A DNA stretch of 64,000 nucleotides from Catajapyx aquilonaris (lineage: Eukaryota). The first letter of the stretch is position 1, and each line of letters begins with the position of its first letter. Positions 8,667-64,000 of this stretch are shown here, one piece after another. A model generated the notes under the pieces. That model worked only from the letters and a program-made list of their open reading frames with translations, ran no database searches and was not told the DNA's origin. The DNA lies in assembly GCA_000934665.2 (NCBI GenBank), contig KZ538327.1:1-64000 (forward strand). Reading direction: 5' to 3'. Both the position numbers and the translations under genes were made by a program.

Positions 8667-9245
8667 ATGGCGGAAGGCAACCAGCAGCAGCAGCAACAGC
8701 AGCAGGGAGCCTCTGGAGGCTACCGAGGCTACGAGTCTTCGTCCTCGTCCTCCCCACGGCTGTCCCTGTCCTCCGACCCTCGACTGTCCCAGCTGCTGGA
8801 CCACTGGTCGGAGCGGTCCTCCTCGTCCCACGGAAGCCCTCGGCCTTACGCGACTCTGGGCGGCAGTCCGCGGCGCCTCTCCAGAGCTTCTTTCTCCAGG
8901 CTCTCTTCCGCTTCTCACGCTTCCTCGCTGCCCTCGGTGCTTGCCGACATGCTCCAACCAGAAGCCTTCCTCTACCAGCCCCATCTCCCGCCGCACCACC
9001 TTCAACCGCATTCCCCTCACCACCACCATCACTCACCGCAATACCATCACCACCACCATCCCCCCCACCTCCACCGGCATCAGGAACCGCAGCCGACTGC
9101 TGTGGACCCTCACTGGGGACCTTCCAGAAGCGCCGATGGAGAAGCCACAGCACTGGATTGGCAACAGAGATGCCTGGAGCTGGAAGTCTCTCTCCAGCGG
9201 TACCGGGATCAGGCCGGACGGGTCAGGGAGCTCCTCAGGGATAAG
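8667..9245 (+). CDS. PLEKHH1/2: First coding exon (partial CDS, 193 codons) of a PLEKHH1/PLEKHH2-family (MAX-1/CG43867-like) PH-MyTH4-FERM protein; only the N-terminal extension and start of the coiled coil are in the window
   Basis: ATG in strong context (GAAAATGG). GC-rich, coding-like composition unlike the flanks. The last 30 aa (9156-9245, DWQQRCLELEVSLQRYRDQAGRVRELLRDK) match the recalled vertebrate PLEKHH1/2 N-terminal motif DWxxRCxxLExQLxxFRxQASKIRELLAxK. Ends at donor AAG|GTCAGT (phase 0); the ORF stop at 9252-9254 is intronic. Assignment from memory, not BLAST. Confidence 0.85.
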
Positions 9246-10730
9246 GTCAGTTGATAATGCATGACCTGAACTGCTGCATGCTGCCGCCGCCGGCTCCTTG
9301 CAGGATGGGGGGAGCATTCATAAAGCTGCGAGTGATGGCTGACCTTTTAGTCAAATTAACGTGAGCGTCGTCGTTAAAAGGAGAAGGGAGATGAGGGGAG
9401 CTGCGGCCGACGCCAATTACGTCTTGCAGGGGAGGATAATGAGGACGTTATAACGCCATAGGAAATCGCCGACCTTCCAACTGCCGTCATCTCCTGTCTC
9501 CAAGGTGACAATGGAAACGGGAATTAAATTTTGCTACCAACCTTATTAACCCGCCTGACAAGTGCCATCTATTTTAGCATCTAGGTCAACCTGCGCAGCG
9601 AGCGGGCTACGACCTTGCTCTATAGGCTTCTGTGCTAGAAGTGTTCTTTCGCTTGATTCGTCCCGAAGCCTTGCGCAGATCTTGTCCAGGCACACCCAAG
9701 CCGAAATGATTATAAACTCTCTCCTTTTAGGAGCCCTCGTAATTACGGGAGCCGCTGAGATGAAAAGTAGCCATTTTTACCTCTCAAGACCGTATTAAAT
9801 TTACTGGTATATGAGTCGGGCATAAATCATGGTTAATAAGGCGAGGATGAGTAACTTAATTACCGAATTACTGGCAGGTTGATGAAGAGCTAGTCTCGGG
9901 GCGGTTTTTCTTCCTGGACCAGGCCGAGACGTAGGTGGTGGCCTGTAGGCTAATAAATGAGTTTCCGGGAAATGGCGTGGGCCTGCCGTGATGATGGGAC
10001 CTTTCAGCGTGACCTCTCTGGACTAGTGTCAAATGAGCCACGTGACACGGGGCCTTGCAATGCTGGTAATTGCCTGTCATGCCCAGTTGGAGATGTGGCT
10101 GTGGCTGTCCAGATTGAGAGATTACAGCCGGGAGATGACGTGGGAGCCACTGCCTCTTTATTTACTCGGGTATTTCGGGTCAGGTGTGCGATTGCATCTT
10201 TCATTAGGTTTGAAAGGGAAAGGCCAAATCACACGTTTGGTGTACCCTGGCTTGCTAACGTGTGAGTTACATGTTTTTCACTCGACTAGCCTGTTATTCA
10301 GCGGCGATACGGTTCTAGATTCAAATGGCGTTTGCGACTCTATGTCAAATGCTATTTCCATGTCTATGTGCATGCTATTCATATTCGAATTTTTTGTTGT
10401 TGGGGTAAACATGCTGCATGCTTTTAGGCCGCGCTGGTGTTTCTCGAAAAGAGTAGGTTATGGACTGCACAAATGCTATATTTAAGCCGGCATTTTACAT
10501 CATATATGTACGTACATAGTAGGCCATGACTAAAATATGGTCTTTTGGTGTTCATAGTCGTGGTCGTGTAGTGAAGTGTGGCGGTCTCATGGAACACTGG
10601 AAATCTGTCATGCGCATGCCGTGTGGATCAATAGAGGTGCATGTGTAGACGGGTCGAGCTTTGAATTCACGTTGAGGGATTGCAAGCTGTGGGAAAATCT
10701 ATATGCCTCCCACACATTTGATTTTTTTCC

Positions 10731-10795: not shown

Positions 10796-12300
10796 CTCCC
10801 CCTCCGCTTAGTTAATGCACGTTGCAGCTATAGCAACAGGAATCATCCATCGAGTACGGCAGCTCCCGAGTAAATGTCACCACTATTTTTAACGGAGAAA
10901 GTACCAGATACAAATCTCTATTTTAAGGAGACTGTTTTACGTCTCACGTTTATGTGGCAAAGAAGGAGGAGGAAAAAACCATTTATAAACATGGAGATTT
11001 ATATCCCAATAAATGAAAGTGGTTTCTGGCAACGTACCACTCGAGGGTGCGTGGTGCAAGGGAGCCTGCTGAGAGATCCTGTGCGAATTTTCAAACTGGT
11101 AGGAAAGAGTAGTGGGCCATGAAGGGAACAGTGTATTGGACCCCAGCGTAATTGCATGAGGCCCAGCAGCTAATAGCCTCGCAATCACTCCCACCTCATT
11201 GTGACTGAACACGAGGCAAGTAGTCGTAGCTATTTAACAGAGCGTATGAGCTTTCAAGATGGGCCAATAAATCTGTCTGGGTGGCATCCATTTGCCTCCA
11301 CGCCAGACCAGATTTCCAGCGCAGTTTTGGACCCGGCTGCATCGCCTCGTAATGGTTTCATTGCCGATAGGGAAGACTGCATTTAAAACTCTTTCTCCCC
11401 CCCTCTGGTTTGCCTGTGTGGTACCGGCAATGGGAAATTCTAACTCAACTGAAAGGGACCAGGATGCGCCATTCCATTTCATTTTTTCTTCATGGGTGGC
11501 CTGTCGCGTTCGGTTTTATGTGCCCGAGATGCCCACGTTCCGGTTTCATCATAGGTTGGTGGTAGGAGCGACTTGATTGTCAAAATGTGTCCTGCTGCTA
11601 GAGACAATGAGTTATTTCCAGCCAAGTCAATAATGGAGAAACCCAGCGGGCGTGAGAGATNGATCCCCCCCCCCCCCCCATGTGCGTGGGGGGTCTGGAG
11701 TGGGGCTGATCATGTGGAAGAGTTCCTTGATAATTTCCACGAGTTTGGTCCATGTAGCATGTACCATGTATTTCAGAATTTGAAGATGAGTTTTTGCGGA
11801 AAGTTTGACGTGGAATCATACGTACTGTTGAATGCCCTATAATAGTGTATGTATGTGTAAGTTATGTCATGAAATGTGTTTTTTACGTATTGATGCTGGA
11901 ACACGTGGTTTTCCAATCATGTTGGCCATACTTGGGTAGCCTCAATAGATTTGAAAACCTAGTGTCGAGGCGGCAACACCGCGACATGTGTGTTGACAGC
12001 TTGTCAGTTGACGTGGCTTAATGGGTGTAGTAGTGGAGGTTGGATCTTTCTGGAATGCTGCCAGAACGCCGTTAGTTGCATACATTTACGGGCCGCAATA
12101 TGTACAGTACATGTTACTCGCTTTTTCAAATGCCGAGAAAGCCAGAAATTCAATTTTCTTGTCTGGTTTGGCGTATTGACTCAAATGCCCTTCTGATCTC
12201 ACACTGTTTGGTTTTGTTATCAATTGCGAAGGGATGCAGGGCAAATGAGATGTAATTTTATTTTTGTCATAATCGTGTACGCTAATGTCAACGGGGTATA

Positions 12301-37579: not shown

Positions 37580-37639
37580 TTAATAAGCCTTTTGTCTCTT
37601 TTCAGGTAAGCAGCGTCATCAAATCAGCTGTTGGTGAGT
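37580..37639 (+). promoter_or_regulatory. Candidate recursive splice site (ratchet point) with a cryptic 28-nt RS-exon
   Basis: CCTTTTGTCTCTTTTCAG|GTAAGC (AG 37604-37605, GT 37606-37607), followed by TTG|GTGAGT at 37634. Confidence 0.6.
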
Positions 37640-48743: not shown

Positions 48744-48763
48744 NNNNNNNNNNNNNNNNNNNN
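48744..48763. other. Assembly gap (20 N) next to a poly-C run
   Basis: Ns seen directly. Single Ns also occur in or beside C/G homopolymers at 11661, 54979, 60080 and 60984. Confidence 0.95.
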
Positions 48764-51700: not shown

Positions 51701-54700
51701 GCAGGGCTCACATTTAGCCCGAATGGAAAGCTAATAGTGCGGAACCGCAGACGATAACACCGTCAACTTTGTCAGCAGTTTCTGCAGTAAGTGTAGACTC
51801 GCCCATTTTCTCTTAGCGCCACTGGGAACTTGCCATCTCCCCCCTTCGCAATGCTGGCAGCCAACGGGGGTCGAGGATTATATTAATTGCGGAGATAACG
51901 GCTCGGGATTATTAAGCTGGTGGTGGATCCCTCAAGAAGATTTGGCTGAGCTATATGTGCCCGACTAATTCAATTTATCTTCCGTCAACATGCGTTTGGG
52001 AAGGTACAACTTGGCAGCCAGAAGTGGTGCACGGTGCTGTAACATGAACTATGCAGACAGGGGTAGTTGGACGAACAACGAGAGAGCAACACGATACCAG
52101 GCTCGGCACGTACACGGCTTTTCCTTTGAATGCACCGTTGACGAGAGATAGAGAGGCGAGAACAAGCGGCACTTGTGCACATATTTTGTAATCGGCAATA
52201 GCAACTGCGAAGCATGTGCTCGGCTTCTCCCCCGTTTTTTCCGTTGTAAAAAAGACGATTTTTTTTTTTCAACGGCTTTCTAAAACGTTCCAGCCCTTTA
52301 TCTCCCGAAGGGCAATCTGTCATCAATATTGGACGTTACTCTCGGAGAAAGTCAGCGGGCCGTTGCCAGGAAAGTTTTCGGGCAGGGAGGGCCTTGGTGG
52401 GTGGTGGGGGTGACTAAAAATGCTTCACCACTTCCAGCTCTGGTTTCTGTGACATTACGAAAACCCCCGAGGGATTGGTGTTGTGCTAATTCAATATTCT
52501 CGTCTCCTCGCTAATAAGCCTTCCAGTTGCGTGTACGGACTCTGCATATACACAAGTAACGATTTGTAGGGCCTGTCGTGCAGGGCTGACATCAAGACCC
52601 CCTAGAATGACAAAGTTTCATACAGTACAAGACTCGCTACATTCAATTTTTGGAAAGGGGGTGCTGGAACGCAAGAGTTTGTATCCACCAAGCGAAAAAA
52701 AGAGCGGATGATTTTTTATACTGTTTTTCTGCAAATCGATTTCTCCCCGCAAAGGCCCGGGTCGATGGCTTTATGCCTTTAGCGGGCTCCAGTACATCCT
52801 GACGATGCATACATAATACTGTAACAACGTTTCACTTGGTATAACCGGGACGAGCCGGAACGTGGACCCACACAGAAAGAGGATGGACCGGAATTCAACA
52901 AAGAGCCGAGGCTCCAGCTTAACGTCATACATTCCGACGTAATGGCGAGACTTTTTTTCTCTCTTCTTCATGTAATTGGCACAAGGGCGGACCACAAAGG
53001 TGGTCCCGTGCAAGCTCTCTTAGTAACACGGCCTTGATGTCGTAAATATAATTCTTGGCAAATGTGAAAGGGGGGAGGGGGGAGGGGCGTTGGCCGGAGG
53101 CACCATAAATCCCGCTTTGGCTACAATAGACCCAATAAAGAGGTAACTGTAAAATAAACCGGGAGACTGAGTGAGGCGGTGATTTTCTGAAACGGAGCCC
53201 GGAGCCGCGGATATTGGGTTGGCCAGATGCCCGGATCCAATAACGCCGTTATATGCAAGGGTTGGCGGGGAAGGGGGTGGAAGAAGTGACCTTTGATTTG
53301 CTGCGGGCCTTCTCTGACCTTTCTTTTATCCGACTCAAATTAATGGACTCTTTTTGGGCAGAGTTAGATGCTTTAGGGGGTGTGTTTGTGTATTTATTGG
53401 AATGCTTGCAACTTGAAGTGAAATTGTTGGGGGGAGGGGGGGGGGGTGAACCGGGGTTATCAAAGTTGCAGGTTCGACGTTATACTGCGTAATGTTATTC
53501 AAAGTTGACATGTGCAGAAAGTTTATTGGTCAAGCTATTCGCGTTTTATATCACAGTTAAGCAGGGTGGAAATGCATAATGTCCAGATTTTGATGGCGGA
53601 AAATCCCGAAGAAATGCAATTTGTGCATGGCTTCATGACCTTAAAATATTGAAAATTTTCTCGTAAACTCAAATATGGCCTAGAGGTGATATGAATGAGA
53701 ATGATGAAACGTGACGTCAAATACTGCTCATATTTGCATGGATATTTAATTTCAAATGCAAGCTACAACGATGGTGACGTATATATGCCTATTCACAAAG
53801 TAAAAGGAAATACTACGCACCTGGTGGGAAAGCCCAGAAACATAACTACTCCTGCTAACTGTTGATATTGGTCTATTTTGTGCATTGCCATGGATCAATA
53901 CCGGCAATACATGGTATTTTACAAAAATGTGCGAAAGTGTGTGGACAAATATGTGTGTACAGTACATATGGAAAGGATGGTTTAATTAACCCGTTTGGAG
54001 TTTGGAACTCCTCTTAATTTGTAAAATATATGTGGCTATTTTCAATGCTGAATTTTCAACATTGTTGTGGATTTACATCCAGTGTCTACTTTCCATGTTT
54101 TTCTGCCATATTTCACCGAAGGCATCTGTCTATTTGTCAATCATGCTCACTTGTATATTCAGTATATTCCTTGGTACAAGGGAGATATGCACCGGTTTCA
54201 GTTCTACGACGAGTTTGCTGGGAGGGTGACCTTCCAAAGGCCTCTGCACTGCACACTTTTGCCATTCCATTTACATACATATGAAGTCGAGCTATGATTT
54301 TACCCGTCATAACAAAAATTATGAAGGCGTCCTATACTCCCTTCTTCCCACGCTAGGGTTCCTACTCTACTTATTCCGCAACAAGTGATGACGTACGCTG
54401 TTAACTGCCTCTTAAACATTTGATGACCGTGACCAGAAATCCAACAGCATGATCATATTGGGCGTCGAGCGAAAGCGACAATGAAATTATTACTAAAAGT
54501 TCAATGACCCAGGAAAAATGAGGGCCGAAGTTTAAGGTAGTAAAAATAGTAGATATTAAAGTGCATATGTTTATGTCGTGGCCCTTTCAGCCTGTACAAG
54601 GTATTTCAATATCATTTTGACGAACAAAGTGAGTTCCTGGGCATTTGCGTCATTTTGTTTCCGAATCCTCGTTACTGAGATAATTAGCGCTAAGTGAAAA

Positions 54701-57375: not shown

Positions 57376-59704
57376 TGTGCGTGTGTTAGGGGTTATCAAT
57401 GAAATAAATATCTAATATATACCTGTATGTTAAAATGAAGCTTGTGTTATATCGCTCAAAAACATAGAGACGATTTTGCATTTGACTCAATAAGTGCAGC
57501 CTGCACTTGAATCAAATGCAAAATCGTCTCTATGTTTTTGAGCGATATAGTACATCAAGTACACTAACATGGTTGCGAAGTGCTGTAGGATCAAGTGTCG
57601 GTTGGGTAAGTTGCAGGTGGGTGTCCGGGTCGGATACGGGTCCCACAAAAGCGGTTTTCGGGCGCCGTGTTTGTCTCCGGGCCCTTGTTCGATAGCGCTG
57701 TCGCACGCCAAGGAAAATGAATTACGCCAGAGGAGGAAGGAAAAGGACCACCCCCACCTCCCCCTTCCAATTGGGATTTGGCAGCCCAGACTTGCCTCGG
57801 GCTTCTTCTTCTTCTTCTTCGTCATATACTTCGCAGCCAGTCTTAGCGGGGTGGGATGCTTGAGGTCGTTGCTCGGGGAGACAACATGTCACGCTCGCCC
57901 ACTCTTAGTTGAATCCTCTGCCAATCAGACTCCGCATTTTGATACGTCATGGAAAATCCCGGTTCCCAAAGTTAGACTTGGCCATGTCATGGACTGCCTG
58001 CCGCTTTTGTCATGTGCTGGGAGCCAGCTCAGTCGTATCGGGTTGCAAGCGCTCGCACAGCAGACGGAAATTAATTTAGCCTGTAAAAATGCGTATCGGG
58101 GAAATTCGGCGTGGCTCGGGGGTTTCCCAAACTGTTGTGGAAACGGTGTCGTGTGTCGTTACACCCTATTAGTCAACCAGGGCTTTTGGCCTGTTCTTTT
58201 TGGCAAGGGGCTGACTTTGTTGGCAGTCTACAAGCAACCTATTATTCCTTTTCTCACTAAGATCGTTACTCTTCGCCTCCATTTTTCACTGTTTATATCT
58301 AGTCATGGAGTAGTGCCACTAGGTTCGCTGAGTTGCTTACTCTTTTGATGGACAATGTTATGAAGCAAATTTCACTCTAGATTCCCCGTGAAATTGCACT
58401 CTTTATATGAATGATCCTTTCAATGCTCATACTCTTCGTCGAGGGCCGATTGCGTGATCGTTGGTAAATTCATAACAAGTGGTTGATACATGTTATTCGC
58501 ATAAAATCAATTAGTTGCTGTGGGTATACAACATATCACGCAATAACGCTCCCTCCATTGCAATTTGTAAATTTGGGTAATATTTACTCAGGTTCTTCCT
58601 ATTATCAAAATTAATGACGTTGACTGGATTTCACTCTCAATATCTTCGAACGATTGCAGTATAAACATTCAGCCTGTGGCCATTTTAAATCCGCTGACTT
58701 GTGATGATTAGAAACCCATAGGCATGCAAGTATACGCCAATGGGATGTTTTTTTGCTGCCATCTTCTTCTTTTTTTGTATTTCCTTCTCTACTGGAGAGC
58801 ATCATTAAGCTTGCCTGGTCTGGATTCCTCCGATGGTGTCTTTGCAATGAAGGTTTTGGGAGACACGGTGCCAGGGGGCAACTTTTACAGGATTTATTTT
58901 TCTCCGTGTTTTCTCCTTTCCCGCACCCTACAACTGGAGCTCTCCTTCCTGGGAGAGTAATGAATTTGTTGCCGGGTTGGAAACTCGACGCGGTAATTCT
59001 TTGGCTAAAGAACGCGTTTGCTGTTTATTTAACAACGGGTGGGTGTACTCTGGGAGATGAAAAAAGAGGCGGAACGGGGGAGCCCTGTTGCCCTCCTTGA
59101 AGGAGGAGGAATTCAATCTAGTCCCTTTTTTTGTGGAAGGTGACTTAATAAGTTTAGAGAGGAAGGAGGCTCCCTCATTTTTTTATTCATCTTCCTCAGC
59201 TCAAGTTTGCACGAAGTTTGAAATGCTATTCATTAGTTGCGGAGAATTTTGCTATAGGCCCACGTGGAGGGGAAGTGAAATGAGGTACATTTTGCTTTTT
59301 TTGTGTGTGTGTCGAGTCGCTCGACCCTCTTGTCAAAAATATTCAGCGCAAGTCATGTCCTATAACACGAACTTTCACTCCATACGAATCCGCGTTTTTG
59401 TGCCTGGCTTCATTATATATTTTACTTCCTCCTTCCTGTCTTCTGTATTATTATTTTTTTTGTTGAGAAAAGAAGGAGACTCGTGCCTGGATGATGAACA
59501 TACCGGGTATAGTCTCCGACTATACTGTGTCCGTTGCCTCAGGATATTGATTTGGGCTAGTGGAACAACATTCTTTGGATTTGTTCGCGTGCTTCACTTT
59601 GGATGCGATATTTGTGGAATGTGAGCGCCACTCTTTTTTTGTTGCCTTGTGAACTCATACCTGCGAGTTAATCCCATGGCGATGTTTGTACCTGTAACGC
59701 GAGG

Positions 59705-59787
59705 AAATTGTCTCATTTTTCTTACCATCCCTTGTTCTCTCGTTCCAGGTATGCGGGCAATTTTTCACCACCATCTTGTATGTGAGT
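59705..59787 (+). promoter_or_regulatory. Candidate recursive splice site (ratchet point) with a cryptic 29-33-nt RS-exon
   Basis: About 40-nt AG-free pyrimidine-rich tract ending CGTTCCAG|GTATGC (AG 59747-59748), followed by overlapping donors GTATGT (59778) and GTGAGT (59782). Confidence 0.55.
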
Positions 59788-61682: not shown

Positions 61683-64000
61683 GTAAGTAGTCGCATACAC
61701 ACTGCCAGAGTTATGTGCTTTTGGTTATTCAACTTTGGGGTCATCGCTGTGGGAAAACGCCAGAGTGAAAACGTGTCGGGTCTGATGGCAAAGTTTTGTG
61801 TGGATTTTGCTGCTAAACTAATCCACAGCGTTAATCCCGTCAAAGCTGTGCGCCATAAAACAAACTTTATGCCTGACATGTATTGACGCACTTTCACTGT
61901 AAAATGGAGAATGCCACTCCGGGCTCCCCTGCGTTAAAGGGAACCTACCATTGTTATAATACGTGAACCTGGGTCCGAAGAAAAACATCAAAATTATTGG
62001 AAATCTCGAAGCACTTGTGGCCCCCGGGGTTTTCGAGTTTGTCGCCAGAATTTCCAATATAAGCAGGCTCACGTGGCGAAAAGTCCAGGGGAGCAGCTGT
62101 TCGTAGAAACTTGTGGCACTGCCTTTCCGTTATCGAAATTGGGCGTCAACCTTATACATTACATTCATCGATTATCCTTACAGCTCGTTGATGCTGGTTA
62201 TACACCATCTCGGCGCAACATTTGGCCTTTATCGGAGCCCAAATGTTAGGTTACTCTTATTATGAGCCCGTCGGAGTCGCAAGTTACCCCCGGCTCATTA
62301 TTACCGGAAGAGATTTTGGGTAACTGGCAGCTTCCATCAGAGGGTTATGTCGGCGACTATCACACTGCGTATTATTTTAGTCTGGAAGGAGTGTGGGTGT
62401 GTGCCTGAGCAGGATAGAAGGAGGGGAAACAGCACATAGGGAGTTTGGCTCGCCTGTATTAGCGTTGCTAAGCTGGGAAACGTGTGAATAAATTAGTGCT
62501 GGTATGTTGGCAGGGGTGGGGAGGCCCTGTTATCTCGCCAGACTATCCTCGGAAGAAACAGGAAATTACACTTCCGGACTCTTTTATAGCCTCACACGTG
62601 ACTCGAATTCCTCTCGTGTCCGCTCCCAAAAAGGGCGGTGGGTGGGTAGGCATGCAGTACAAATGGATAAATCCAATCCATCATGTCGAACCCACTTACC
62701 AAACCGTTGCTAATAACTCTGTTCATGTGAGCGGGCCCGGCCCAGCCAGCCGAAGAAAGAAAAGTGTCAGCTAGAAACCGCATTGAAGTCACTCGTATAC
62801 CTTTAACAAAAAATAAAATAAGAGAAACCGAGACTTAGGTCTCCCTTTCAGTTTGGTCACGCGGGACGGCCGTAATCCCTGTGAAAGACCCTTAAAATTA
62901 ATGCCCCACATTCCGACTTCTTTCAGTGATGCCTGCGCGGACTTTGAAAAACTCCGTGGCTGCGAATGAATGCCCAGATCGATTAGCCTTGGGCGCCGTC
63001 TCAATAGTTGGCCACACTTGGATTTTATGGGCCCGGCGTTTCGTGCGCCGTAAATCATCCCGACCTATATGTATATGAGTTATTTCGGTTTGGAGGAGCC
63101 CGGTTTAGGGCCCGAAGGGCATAGCGTGATGAGACCCGGAGTATATTGAAGCAAGGGATGGAAAAACGCGGGGTAAAAATGACTAGCTCCGTTCATCCGT
63201 GCAGAGGGATTCGTGATTTACTTGTGAATGTGAGCAGGTCTCTGTACAAGAAAACGGAGTGACCACGCAGTCTCGGTCAACGACACTCTCAATTTATGCA
63301 CGCAGGGTGACTTTAGTCTCCCCCATATATCCTCTTAGCCGCCCGGGGATACAGAAAGCAGCTGCTGGGAGGGGGGGGAAAAAATATATGCCAAGTCAAA
63401 TTGACTTGGCGACCATCTCCGTCATCCATTCATGGAGTGGAAATTTATGACCTGGAGGCTGGTCCAAGGAAGTAAGGACGTAATGCATCATCTCTCTCTC
63501 TCTCTCTTTCCCTCCAAGACTGCCGGTCAGCCCCTACGGATGAAGCCGTATAGCAAGATATTATATGCTGAGAAAATCCCCCTTCTCCCAAGATAGATTT
63601 ATTAAAATAAAAAAAGAACGCCATTGGATGCATCTGGTAGCTTGTAGGTAACTTCCAGCTGTTCCGCGTGACCCAACCGGTGCACCGTACAGTGGGTTGA
63701 AATCGCTTTGTGACCTCCCTTTGCGGACATGGCAAACGCACCTCGTTATTCGGACCTCAAAAGGCTGCGGCTGCAGTTGCCATCATGGACACGGACTTTA
63801 AAGGGGACGGATCTGTAACTCCAGGCGCTCCCCAAGTTCGTCGTCTATAGCCCGCTGCCACACTGCCGGCCGTTGTTATCTGCCCAACTTTTAGTAGAGG
63901 GGAGACAGGAATTTGCATAAATGTTATGGTTGTATGTCTAGGGTTGTCGTCTTCTTCTTTTTTCTAGGGAGGGGTTGGTGCCTCGTGGCGCCCTTGGCGT

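Follow-up and report, generated by a model that had tools for sequence, protein, structure and literature searches.

A putative ratchet point with a short cryptic exon, the second of at least two candidates in the long intron of a PLEKHH/MAX-1 homologue

Is the acceptor–donor junction at position 59749 a recursive splice site at which a very long intron is removed in steps, or a chance resemblance, an ordinary small exon or the signal of another transcript? The question arises in the window, the whole stretch of 64,000 nucleotides of Catajapyx aquilonaris DNA analysed here, whose numbering is used throughout. We give a probability of about one half to the reading that recursive splicing does use 59749 as an intronic ratchet point, accompanied by a short cryptic RS-exon; part of that same reading is that it would be the second of at least two putative ratchet points in the intron behind the first coding exon of a PLEKHH/MAX-1 homologue. 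The sequence elements, the host gene, the statistics of the paired sites and the competing explanations are taken in turn.

Sequence elements at position 59749

The + strand carries the 41-nt tract TTGTCTCATTTTTCTTACCATCCCTTGTTCTCTCGTTCCAG at 59708–59748, directly 5′ of GTATGC, and acceptor and donor are thereby juxtaposed as CAG|GTATGC with the donor starting at 59749. The first-pass annotation had described a long AG-free pyrimidine tract followed at once by GTATGC; this arrangement is present, but the tract begins at 59708 and not at 59705. It is 85% pyrimidine rather than pure, with six purines in the 39 nt preceding the acceptor AG, while pyrimidines fill 17 of the 20 positions from −23 to −4 and no AG occurs for 43 nt 5′ of the acceptor AG. 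Positions −5 and −6 are both T (...GTTCCAG|). Two pentamers resemble branch points, namely CTCAT (A at 59715) and CTTAC (A at 59724), located 33 and 24 nt from the acceptor AG; the branch-point consensus is yUnAy. The entire 58–60 kb region is markedly T-rich (AT skew −0.216).

Further donors had been placed 29 and 33 nt downstream of 59749, and they are found exactly there, GTATGT at 59778 (+29) and GTGAGT at 59782 (+33). They would delimit a putative RS-exon of either 29 nt (59749–59777), which is out of frame, or 33 nt (59749–59781), whose translation in phase 0, VCGQFFTTILY, bears out the earlier statement that this version preserves the frame. Donor scores here and below come from a position weight matrix (PWM) of generic metazoan splice-site frequencies. 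The elements of this site, hereafter site 2, are as follows.

59704–59748, + strand: AG-free zone and polypyrimidine tract of site 2 (from the sequence; 43 nt AG-free, 17/20 pyrimidine)
59749–59754, + strand: putative ratchet-point donor GTATGC (score 8.7 in place; AAG|GTATGC after joining to exon 1, 8.3)
59749–59781 (33 nt) or 59749–59777 (29 nt), + strand: putative cryptic RS-exon (from the sequence and its translation)
59778–59787, + strand: overlapping downstream donors CTT|GTATGT (4.3) and TAT|GTGAGT (6.8) (from the sequence and the generic PWM)

The host gene and the extent of its long intron

Upstream of both candidate sites, an open reading frame with an ATG at 8667 extends over 193 codons to a phase-0 end at 9245, where the exon boundary reads AAG|GTCAGT (9245/9246).

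8667–9245, + strand: first coding exon of the PLEKHH/MAX-1 homologue, with the C-terminal coiled-coil motif LDWQQRCLELEVSLQRYRDQAGRVRELLRDK (open reading frame, homologues, profile, tblastn at ~1e-10)
9246–9251, + strand: 5′ splice site of the long intron, AAG|GTCAGT (8.3 on the generic PWM; AAG|GT common to 13/13 related loci)

The proposed identity of the gene as a PLEKHH/MAX-1 homologue is upheld by profile matches to annotated PLEKHH1/2 proteins and by tblastn (E ~1e-10). An exhaustive HMMER search yielded 41 homologues of the C-terminal motif of exon 1 (...DWQQRCLELEVSLQRYRDQAGRVRELLRDK), 19 of which were taken and 18 aligned; in 17 of the 18, ORF fragments read through the same exon boundary as K|V, with V encoded by GTN. 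The profile of this 18-homologue alignment led to three annotated full-length proteins, Daphnia magna PLEKHH2 isoform X2 (E 4.8e-25) and the PLEKHH1-like proteins of Amphibalanus amphitrite and of Pollicipes pollicipes. The nearest named homologues of exon 1 are crustacean. All three proteins contain PH, MyTH4 and FERM according to precomputed Pfam assignments, and the exons for these domains fall outside the window. Each of the three continues from LLR[DE]K into L[AV]E[ML]E.RVV... with no insertion between. MAX-1 is the C. elegans homologue of PLEKHH1 (PMC6080411). Pfam assigned no family to the exon 1 protein, and two word-indexed homology searches, with exon 1 whole and with residues 140–193, returned no match; the ESM Atlas gave for exon 1 only an unnamed arthropod cluster at 0.90, which we take as a lead only.

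Two peculiarities of this exon and its relatives deserve mention in their own right. The exon 1 donor AAG|GTCAGT has an unusual C at +3, a position at which GTA is found in 13/13 related loci (GTAAGC, GTAGGA, GTAAGT, GTAAGA, GTAGCA). Moreover, one homologue, P0001, contains the coiled-coil exon motif (EVDWKQRCLELQLELHRTKAQSTRTRDMLRDK) twice in tandem, separated by a 26-residue linker and followed by TAGLRYELIQAELEY. A fragment of transcript origin could account for this, as could local duplication of the exon in another species.

The 13 related loci are metagenome loci (L001–L013, narrower alignment) that comprise only 0.2–6 kb of intron after exon 1. AAG|GT stands at the same exon boundary in all 13. 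Their 0.2–6 kb intron flanks contain no ratchet-point-like site, the best composite score being 13.0, and exon 2 is absent from their 3′ flanks (up to 6 kb, in L009), an indication that the PLEKHH family commonly has a long intron behind the LLR[DE]K exon. The 24-nt core of site 2 gave 0 matches among the metagenome contigs.

In the window itself, tblastn with the three full-length orthologues recovered exon 1 only (E ~1e-10), everything else lying at E ≥0.5, and a regular expression for the expected start of exon 2 had no match on either strand. No further PLEKHH exon thus appears up to position 64000, and we therefore infer that the intron spans at least 54.7 kb and that 59749 lies at least 50 kb inside it, provided that the gene is intact and the scaffold collinear across the 20-N gap at 48744. 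Among the 137 open reading frames of at least 90 aa in the window, none reached a curated Pfam cut-off (four sub-threshold matches are attributable to chance), and Rfam had 0 matches over the whole window. The intron consequently gives no sign in Pfam or Rfam of another gene or of a transposon ORF, with no reverse transcriptase or transposase. Judged by these Pfam-less reading frames, recent protein-coding transposons do not seem to be the apparent cause of its inflation.

Strand asymmetry is pronounced along the intron: in 2-kb bins GC skew is positive in 27/27 and AT skew negative in 24/27. Skew cannot delimit the transcription unit, because the same GC and AT skews occur in the 8.3 kb upstream of exon 1; there they may reflect a transcription unit that starts before the window, with 5′ UTR exons, or a regional skew.

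As to the assembly, single Ns occur at 11661, 54979, 60080 and 60984, and the 20-N gap (48744–48763) is flanked by poly-C. Every N is found within, or directly at, a long homopolymer of C or G. Such a placement has the look of an artefact of assembly or polishing, and the 20-N run probably represents a gap in the scaffold.

Two sites of one design and their chance expectation

Site 2 has a counterpart about 22 kb upstream. At 37606 (+) the sequence reads TTTTCAG|GTAAGC, with TT at −5/−6 and GTGAGT at +28. Its putative ratchet-point donor scores 11.3 in place and its RS-exon donor 8.6 on the generic PWM.

37586–37639, + strand: site 1, comprising an acceptor tract, CAG|GTAAGC at 37606, a putative 28-nt RS-exon (37606–37633) and the donor GTGAGT at 37634
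48744–48763, no strand: 20-N assembly gap in the second intron segment (from the sequence)

The two positions partition the intron into 28,360 nt (9246–37605) and 22,143 nt (37606–59748), in agreement with the approximately 28-kb and 22-kb segments estimated before; the true length of the latter is uncertain because the 20-N gap lies inside it. A third segment, at least 4.25 kb long, continues past the window end. A repeated or paralogous origin of the common architecture was rejected, as the sites share no repeats and cannot be aligned beyond 10-nt words. The 28-nt and 29-nt putative RS-exons together measure 57 nt and are stop-free in phase 0 (VSSVIKSAVGMRAIFHHHL), and their joint inclusion would preserve the frame. 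This open 57-nt frame is probably a coincidence, since some 40% of random 19-codon stretches are open.

How unusual the pair is was assessed by scoring every AGGT site, 217 on the sense and 155 on the antisense strand, with a PWM for juxtaposed acceptor and donor; its frequencies are generic metazoan splice-site frequencies that may not be those of the host, and thresholds were set post hoc at the observed values. Site 1 and site 2, with composites of 22.2 and 20.7, rank first and second of the 217 sense sites; the third sense site reaches 17.0, and the 155 antisense sites reach at most 18.1. At a composite of at least 15 there is no excess, with 4 sites on the sense strand of the intron vs 3 on the antisense strand, and only the top two stand out. 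The best antisense junction, CCACCAG|GTGCGT at 53820 (−), has a best downstream donor of only 1.2 and forms a natural control.

The intron was shuffled 400 times in blocks of 500 nt with its dinucleotide composition preserved. At the post hoc threshold of 20.7, sites of this strength numbered 0.07 per shuffle on average; 7% of the shuffles had one or more and 0.25% had two or more. When a downstream donor was also required, the mean fell to 0.0025. A cruder, independent consensus-count test found 2 sites observed vs 0.13 expected, with at least two in 0.7% of shuffles. For the downstream donor, a criterion of 7/9 matches to CAGGTAAGT excluded the RS-exon donors of both sites and the PWM was used instead: a donor of at least 6.8 at +15 to +40 accompanies 8/217 sense and 10/155 antisense AGGT sites, both candidates included. 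TT at −5/−6 is found at 28/217 sense AGGT sites, again with both candidates among them; this rule derives from Drosophila and may not hold here. The claim that both sites share one three-part design is supported, and by PWM scores and shuffles the design is statistically unusual on the sense strand.

These figures bear directly on the strongest competitor of the ratchet-point reading, according to which site 2 is a pseudo-site that is never productively spliced, a T-rich stretch that happens to end in CAG|GT with donor-like hexamers behind it. The intron offers 217 sense AGGT sites as opportunities and the 58–60 kb region is rich in T, one shuffle in 14 produces at least one site of 20.7 or more, an antisense site attains 18.1, and the thresholds are post hoc and the PWM generic. 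Against this stand two sites on the sense strand with none on the antisense strand and none in the 8.6 kb upstream, a combination of at least two that only 0.25% of shuffles reach; further, each site independently has a good donor at +28 or +33 (4–6% of AGGT sites) and TT at −5/−6 (13%). On balance we consider a pseudo-site unlikely, though a serious contender.

The recursive reading, its alternatives and comparison with known systems

If 59749 is used as a ratchet point, a branch point at about 59715–59724, the pyrimidine tract and the CAG would, together with the donor at +33 or +29, delimit a very small exon. Exon 1, previously joined to and re-spliced from 37606, would then be ligated to 59749. 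This ligation would regenerate a donor, AAG|GTATGC, in competition with the RS-exon donor, and the regenerated donor would remove the next intron segment, so that the element would leave no trace in the mRNA. On the generic PWM the higher score at either site goes to the regenerated donor rather than to the RS-exon donor, with AAG|GTAAGC at 10.9 vs 8.6 at site 1 and AAG|GTATGC at 8.3 vs 6.8 (+33) and 4.3 (+29) at site 2, where the margin is small. This ranking would fit the donor-competition model set out in PMC8605326. By the intronic hexamer alone, GTGAGT at +33 is nearer the consensus than GTATGC. Both putative ratchet-point donors score at least as high as the donor of exon 1 (8.3).

Because the margin at site 2 is small, some inclusion of the in-frame 33-nt exon is conceivable, and this leads to the next alternative, an ordinary expressed cassette exon. 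It would be either a 33-nt micro-exon adding VCGQFFTTILY after LLRDK or a 29-nt frameshifting poison exon serving regulated NMD, and its initial GT would be incidental or rarely re-spliced, as in the expressed RS-exons mI and mII of Ubx. A good acceptor with donors at +29 and +33 does form an exon-like unit, the 33-nt form keeps the frame, the +33 GTGAGT nearly equals the regenerated donor (6.8 vs 8.3), and the 28-nt and 29-nt exons combined (57 nt) retain the frame without a stop. Expressed RS-exons do exist in Drosophila (PMC8605326). In contrast, the three annotated full-length crustacean orthologues all pass from LLR[DE]K into L[AV]E[ML]E without an insertion, and the hydrophobic VCGQFFTTILY would break up the coiled coil. 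Moreover, donors scoring 8.3–8.7 are met by chance at only about 39 of the 3,941 GT positions in the 64 kb, and two successive exons that start with such donors point to recursion rather than coincidence. Taken together, an ordinary cassette exon appears rather improbable.

A bolder version of the recursive reading would hold that stepwise removal of the intron after LLR[DE]K is ancient and conserved in PLEKHH/MAX-1 and that the RS micro-exon at site 2 is expressed in the manner of Ubx mI and mII; we regard this version as very doubtful. Were it true, balanced donors would choose between skipping and the insertion of 11 residues into the N-terminal coiled coil, a protein switch controlled by recursive splicing outside the Drosophila Hox genes, and two putative AGGT sites in human PLEKHH2, described below, would be its vertebrate counterpart.

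The weakest alternative, that these are splice signals of a different, unannotated + strand transcript such as a non-coding RNA or an internal-promoter isoform, draws on exon 2 being unseen in the window, with continuity of the transcription unit assumed, and on a skew that extends past the first coding exon, but 0/137 open reading frames of at least 90 aa reach a curated Pfam cut-off, Rfam has 0 matches, the orientation is that of the host gene and the donor placed directly at the acceptor would go unexplained, which makes it highly improbable.

The ratchet-point reading is the one that we carry forward. The architecture is that of a known mechanism, and the site is a candidate new instance of a design that is itself not new. 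If used, it would provide a clean case of serial recursive splicing outside Drosophila and vertebrates, in a group of invertebrates for which motif enrichment across genomes is so far the sole basis for inferring recursion, and it would mean that the cryptic RS-exon architecture of acceptor, regenerated donor and rival donor some 30 nt further on can be recognised from sequence alone. PLEKHH/MAX-1 biology would be affected only if the in-frame 33-nt exon were sometimes included. Specialists would expect such an outcome rather than be surprised by it, as the mechanism is anticipated in long invertebrate introns.

Ratchet points with cryptic RS-exons have reportedly been described in Drosophila Ubx, kuzbanian, Bx and luna, in work said to extend from Hatton 1998 and Burnette 2005 to Duff 2015, Joseph 2018/2021 and Pai 2018. 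The candidate sites resemble them in the (Y)n-NCAG|GT acceptor/donor, in TT at −5/−6, in their position deep inside an intron of more than 40 kb, in a short downstream cryptic exon with a second donor that the regenerated donor outscores on the generic PWM, by a small margin at site 2, and in out-of-frame RS-exons (here 28 and 29 nt). PMC8605326 describes the Drosophila ratchet point as an acceptor|donor tandem that takes in a short cryptic RS-exon of about 50 nt and a downstream donor; the RS-exon is usually out of frame and is skipped since the regenerated donor out-competes its own. The same source gives two evenly spaced ratchet points in the ~50 kb intron of kuzbanian, to which the two roughly evenly spaced sites described here are similar. 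According to Duff et al. (10.1101/006163), 196/197 Drosophila ratchet points have TT at −5/−6 and pyrimidine tracts are prominent; recursive introns measure 11–133 kb and their segments 2.6–63.6 kb with a mean of 18 kb, a range that includes the present segments of 28.4 and 22.1 kb. Most fly introns of more than 40 kb contain recursive sites (PMC6110457). In contrast to the near-invariant GTAAGT of fly ratchet points, site 2 has the weaker donor GTATGC, and the RS-exons are 28–33 nt here vs about 50 nt in flies; in addition, the host is non-drosophilid and the present sites are known from their sequence motif.

Vertebrate RS-exons have been described by Sibley 2015 and Zhang 2018 (PMC6110456), together with EJC-repressed RS-exons (PMC6224609). 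The proposed course of events, exon definition followed by competition between a reconstituted 5′ splice site and that of the RS-exon in the longest, early intron, resembles theirs. The earlier remark that recursive splicing is not described for the PLEKHH family stands for main texts, as the literature searched yielded no link between the two apart from an unrelated review, but not for supplementary data: in S1 Table of PMC6110456, a 34,066-nt intron of human PLEKHH2 is entered with two putative AGGT sites. Both were predicted from motif plus conservation only, and neither recurs in the S2 table of junction-supported sites or the S3 table of sawtooth sites; the comparison is one by gene family and does not imply orthology of the introns.

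The closest statistical precedent is the genome-wide survey by Shepard, McCreary and Fedorov 2009 (PMC2773006), which in its available part names no PLEKHH site and differs from the present work in its scoring, as we applied our own PWM and not the Burnette 80% score. There, the sense strand of introns of more than 50 kb has a 4- to >20-fold enrichment of RP-sites in sea urchin, mosquito, bee, beetle and fly and none in vertebrates; the antisense strand has about 0.1 per 100 kb, and the sea urchin values are 0.54 sense vs 0.066. The intron analysed here has the same polarity, with 2 sites in 54.7 kb on the sense strand and 0 on the antisense strand at the same threshold.
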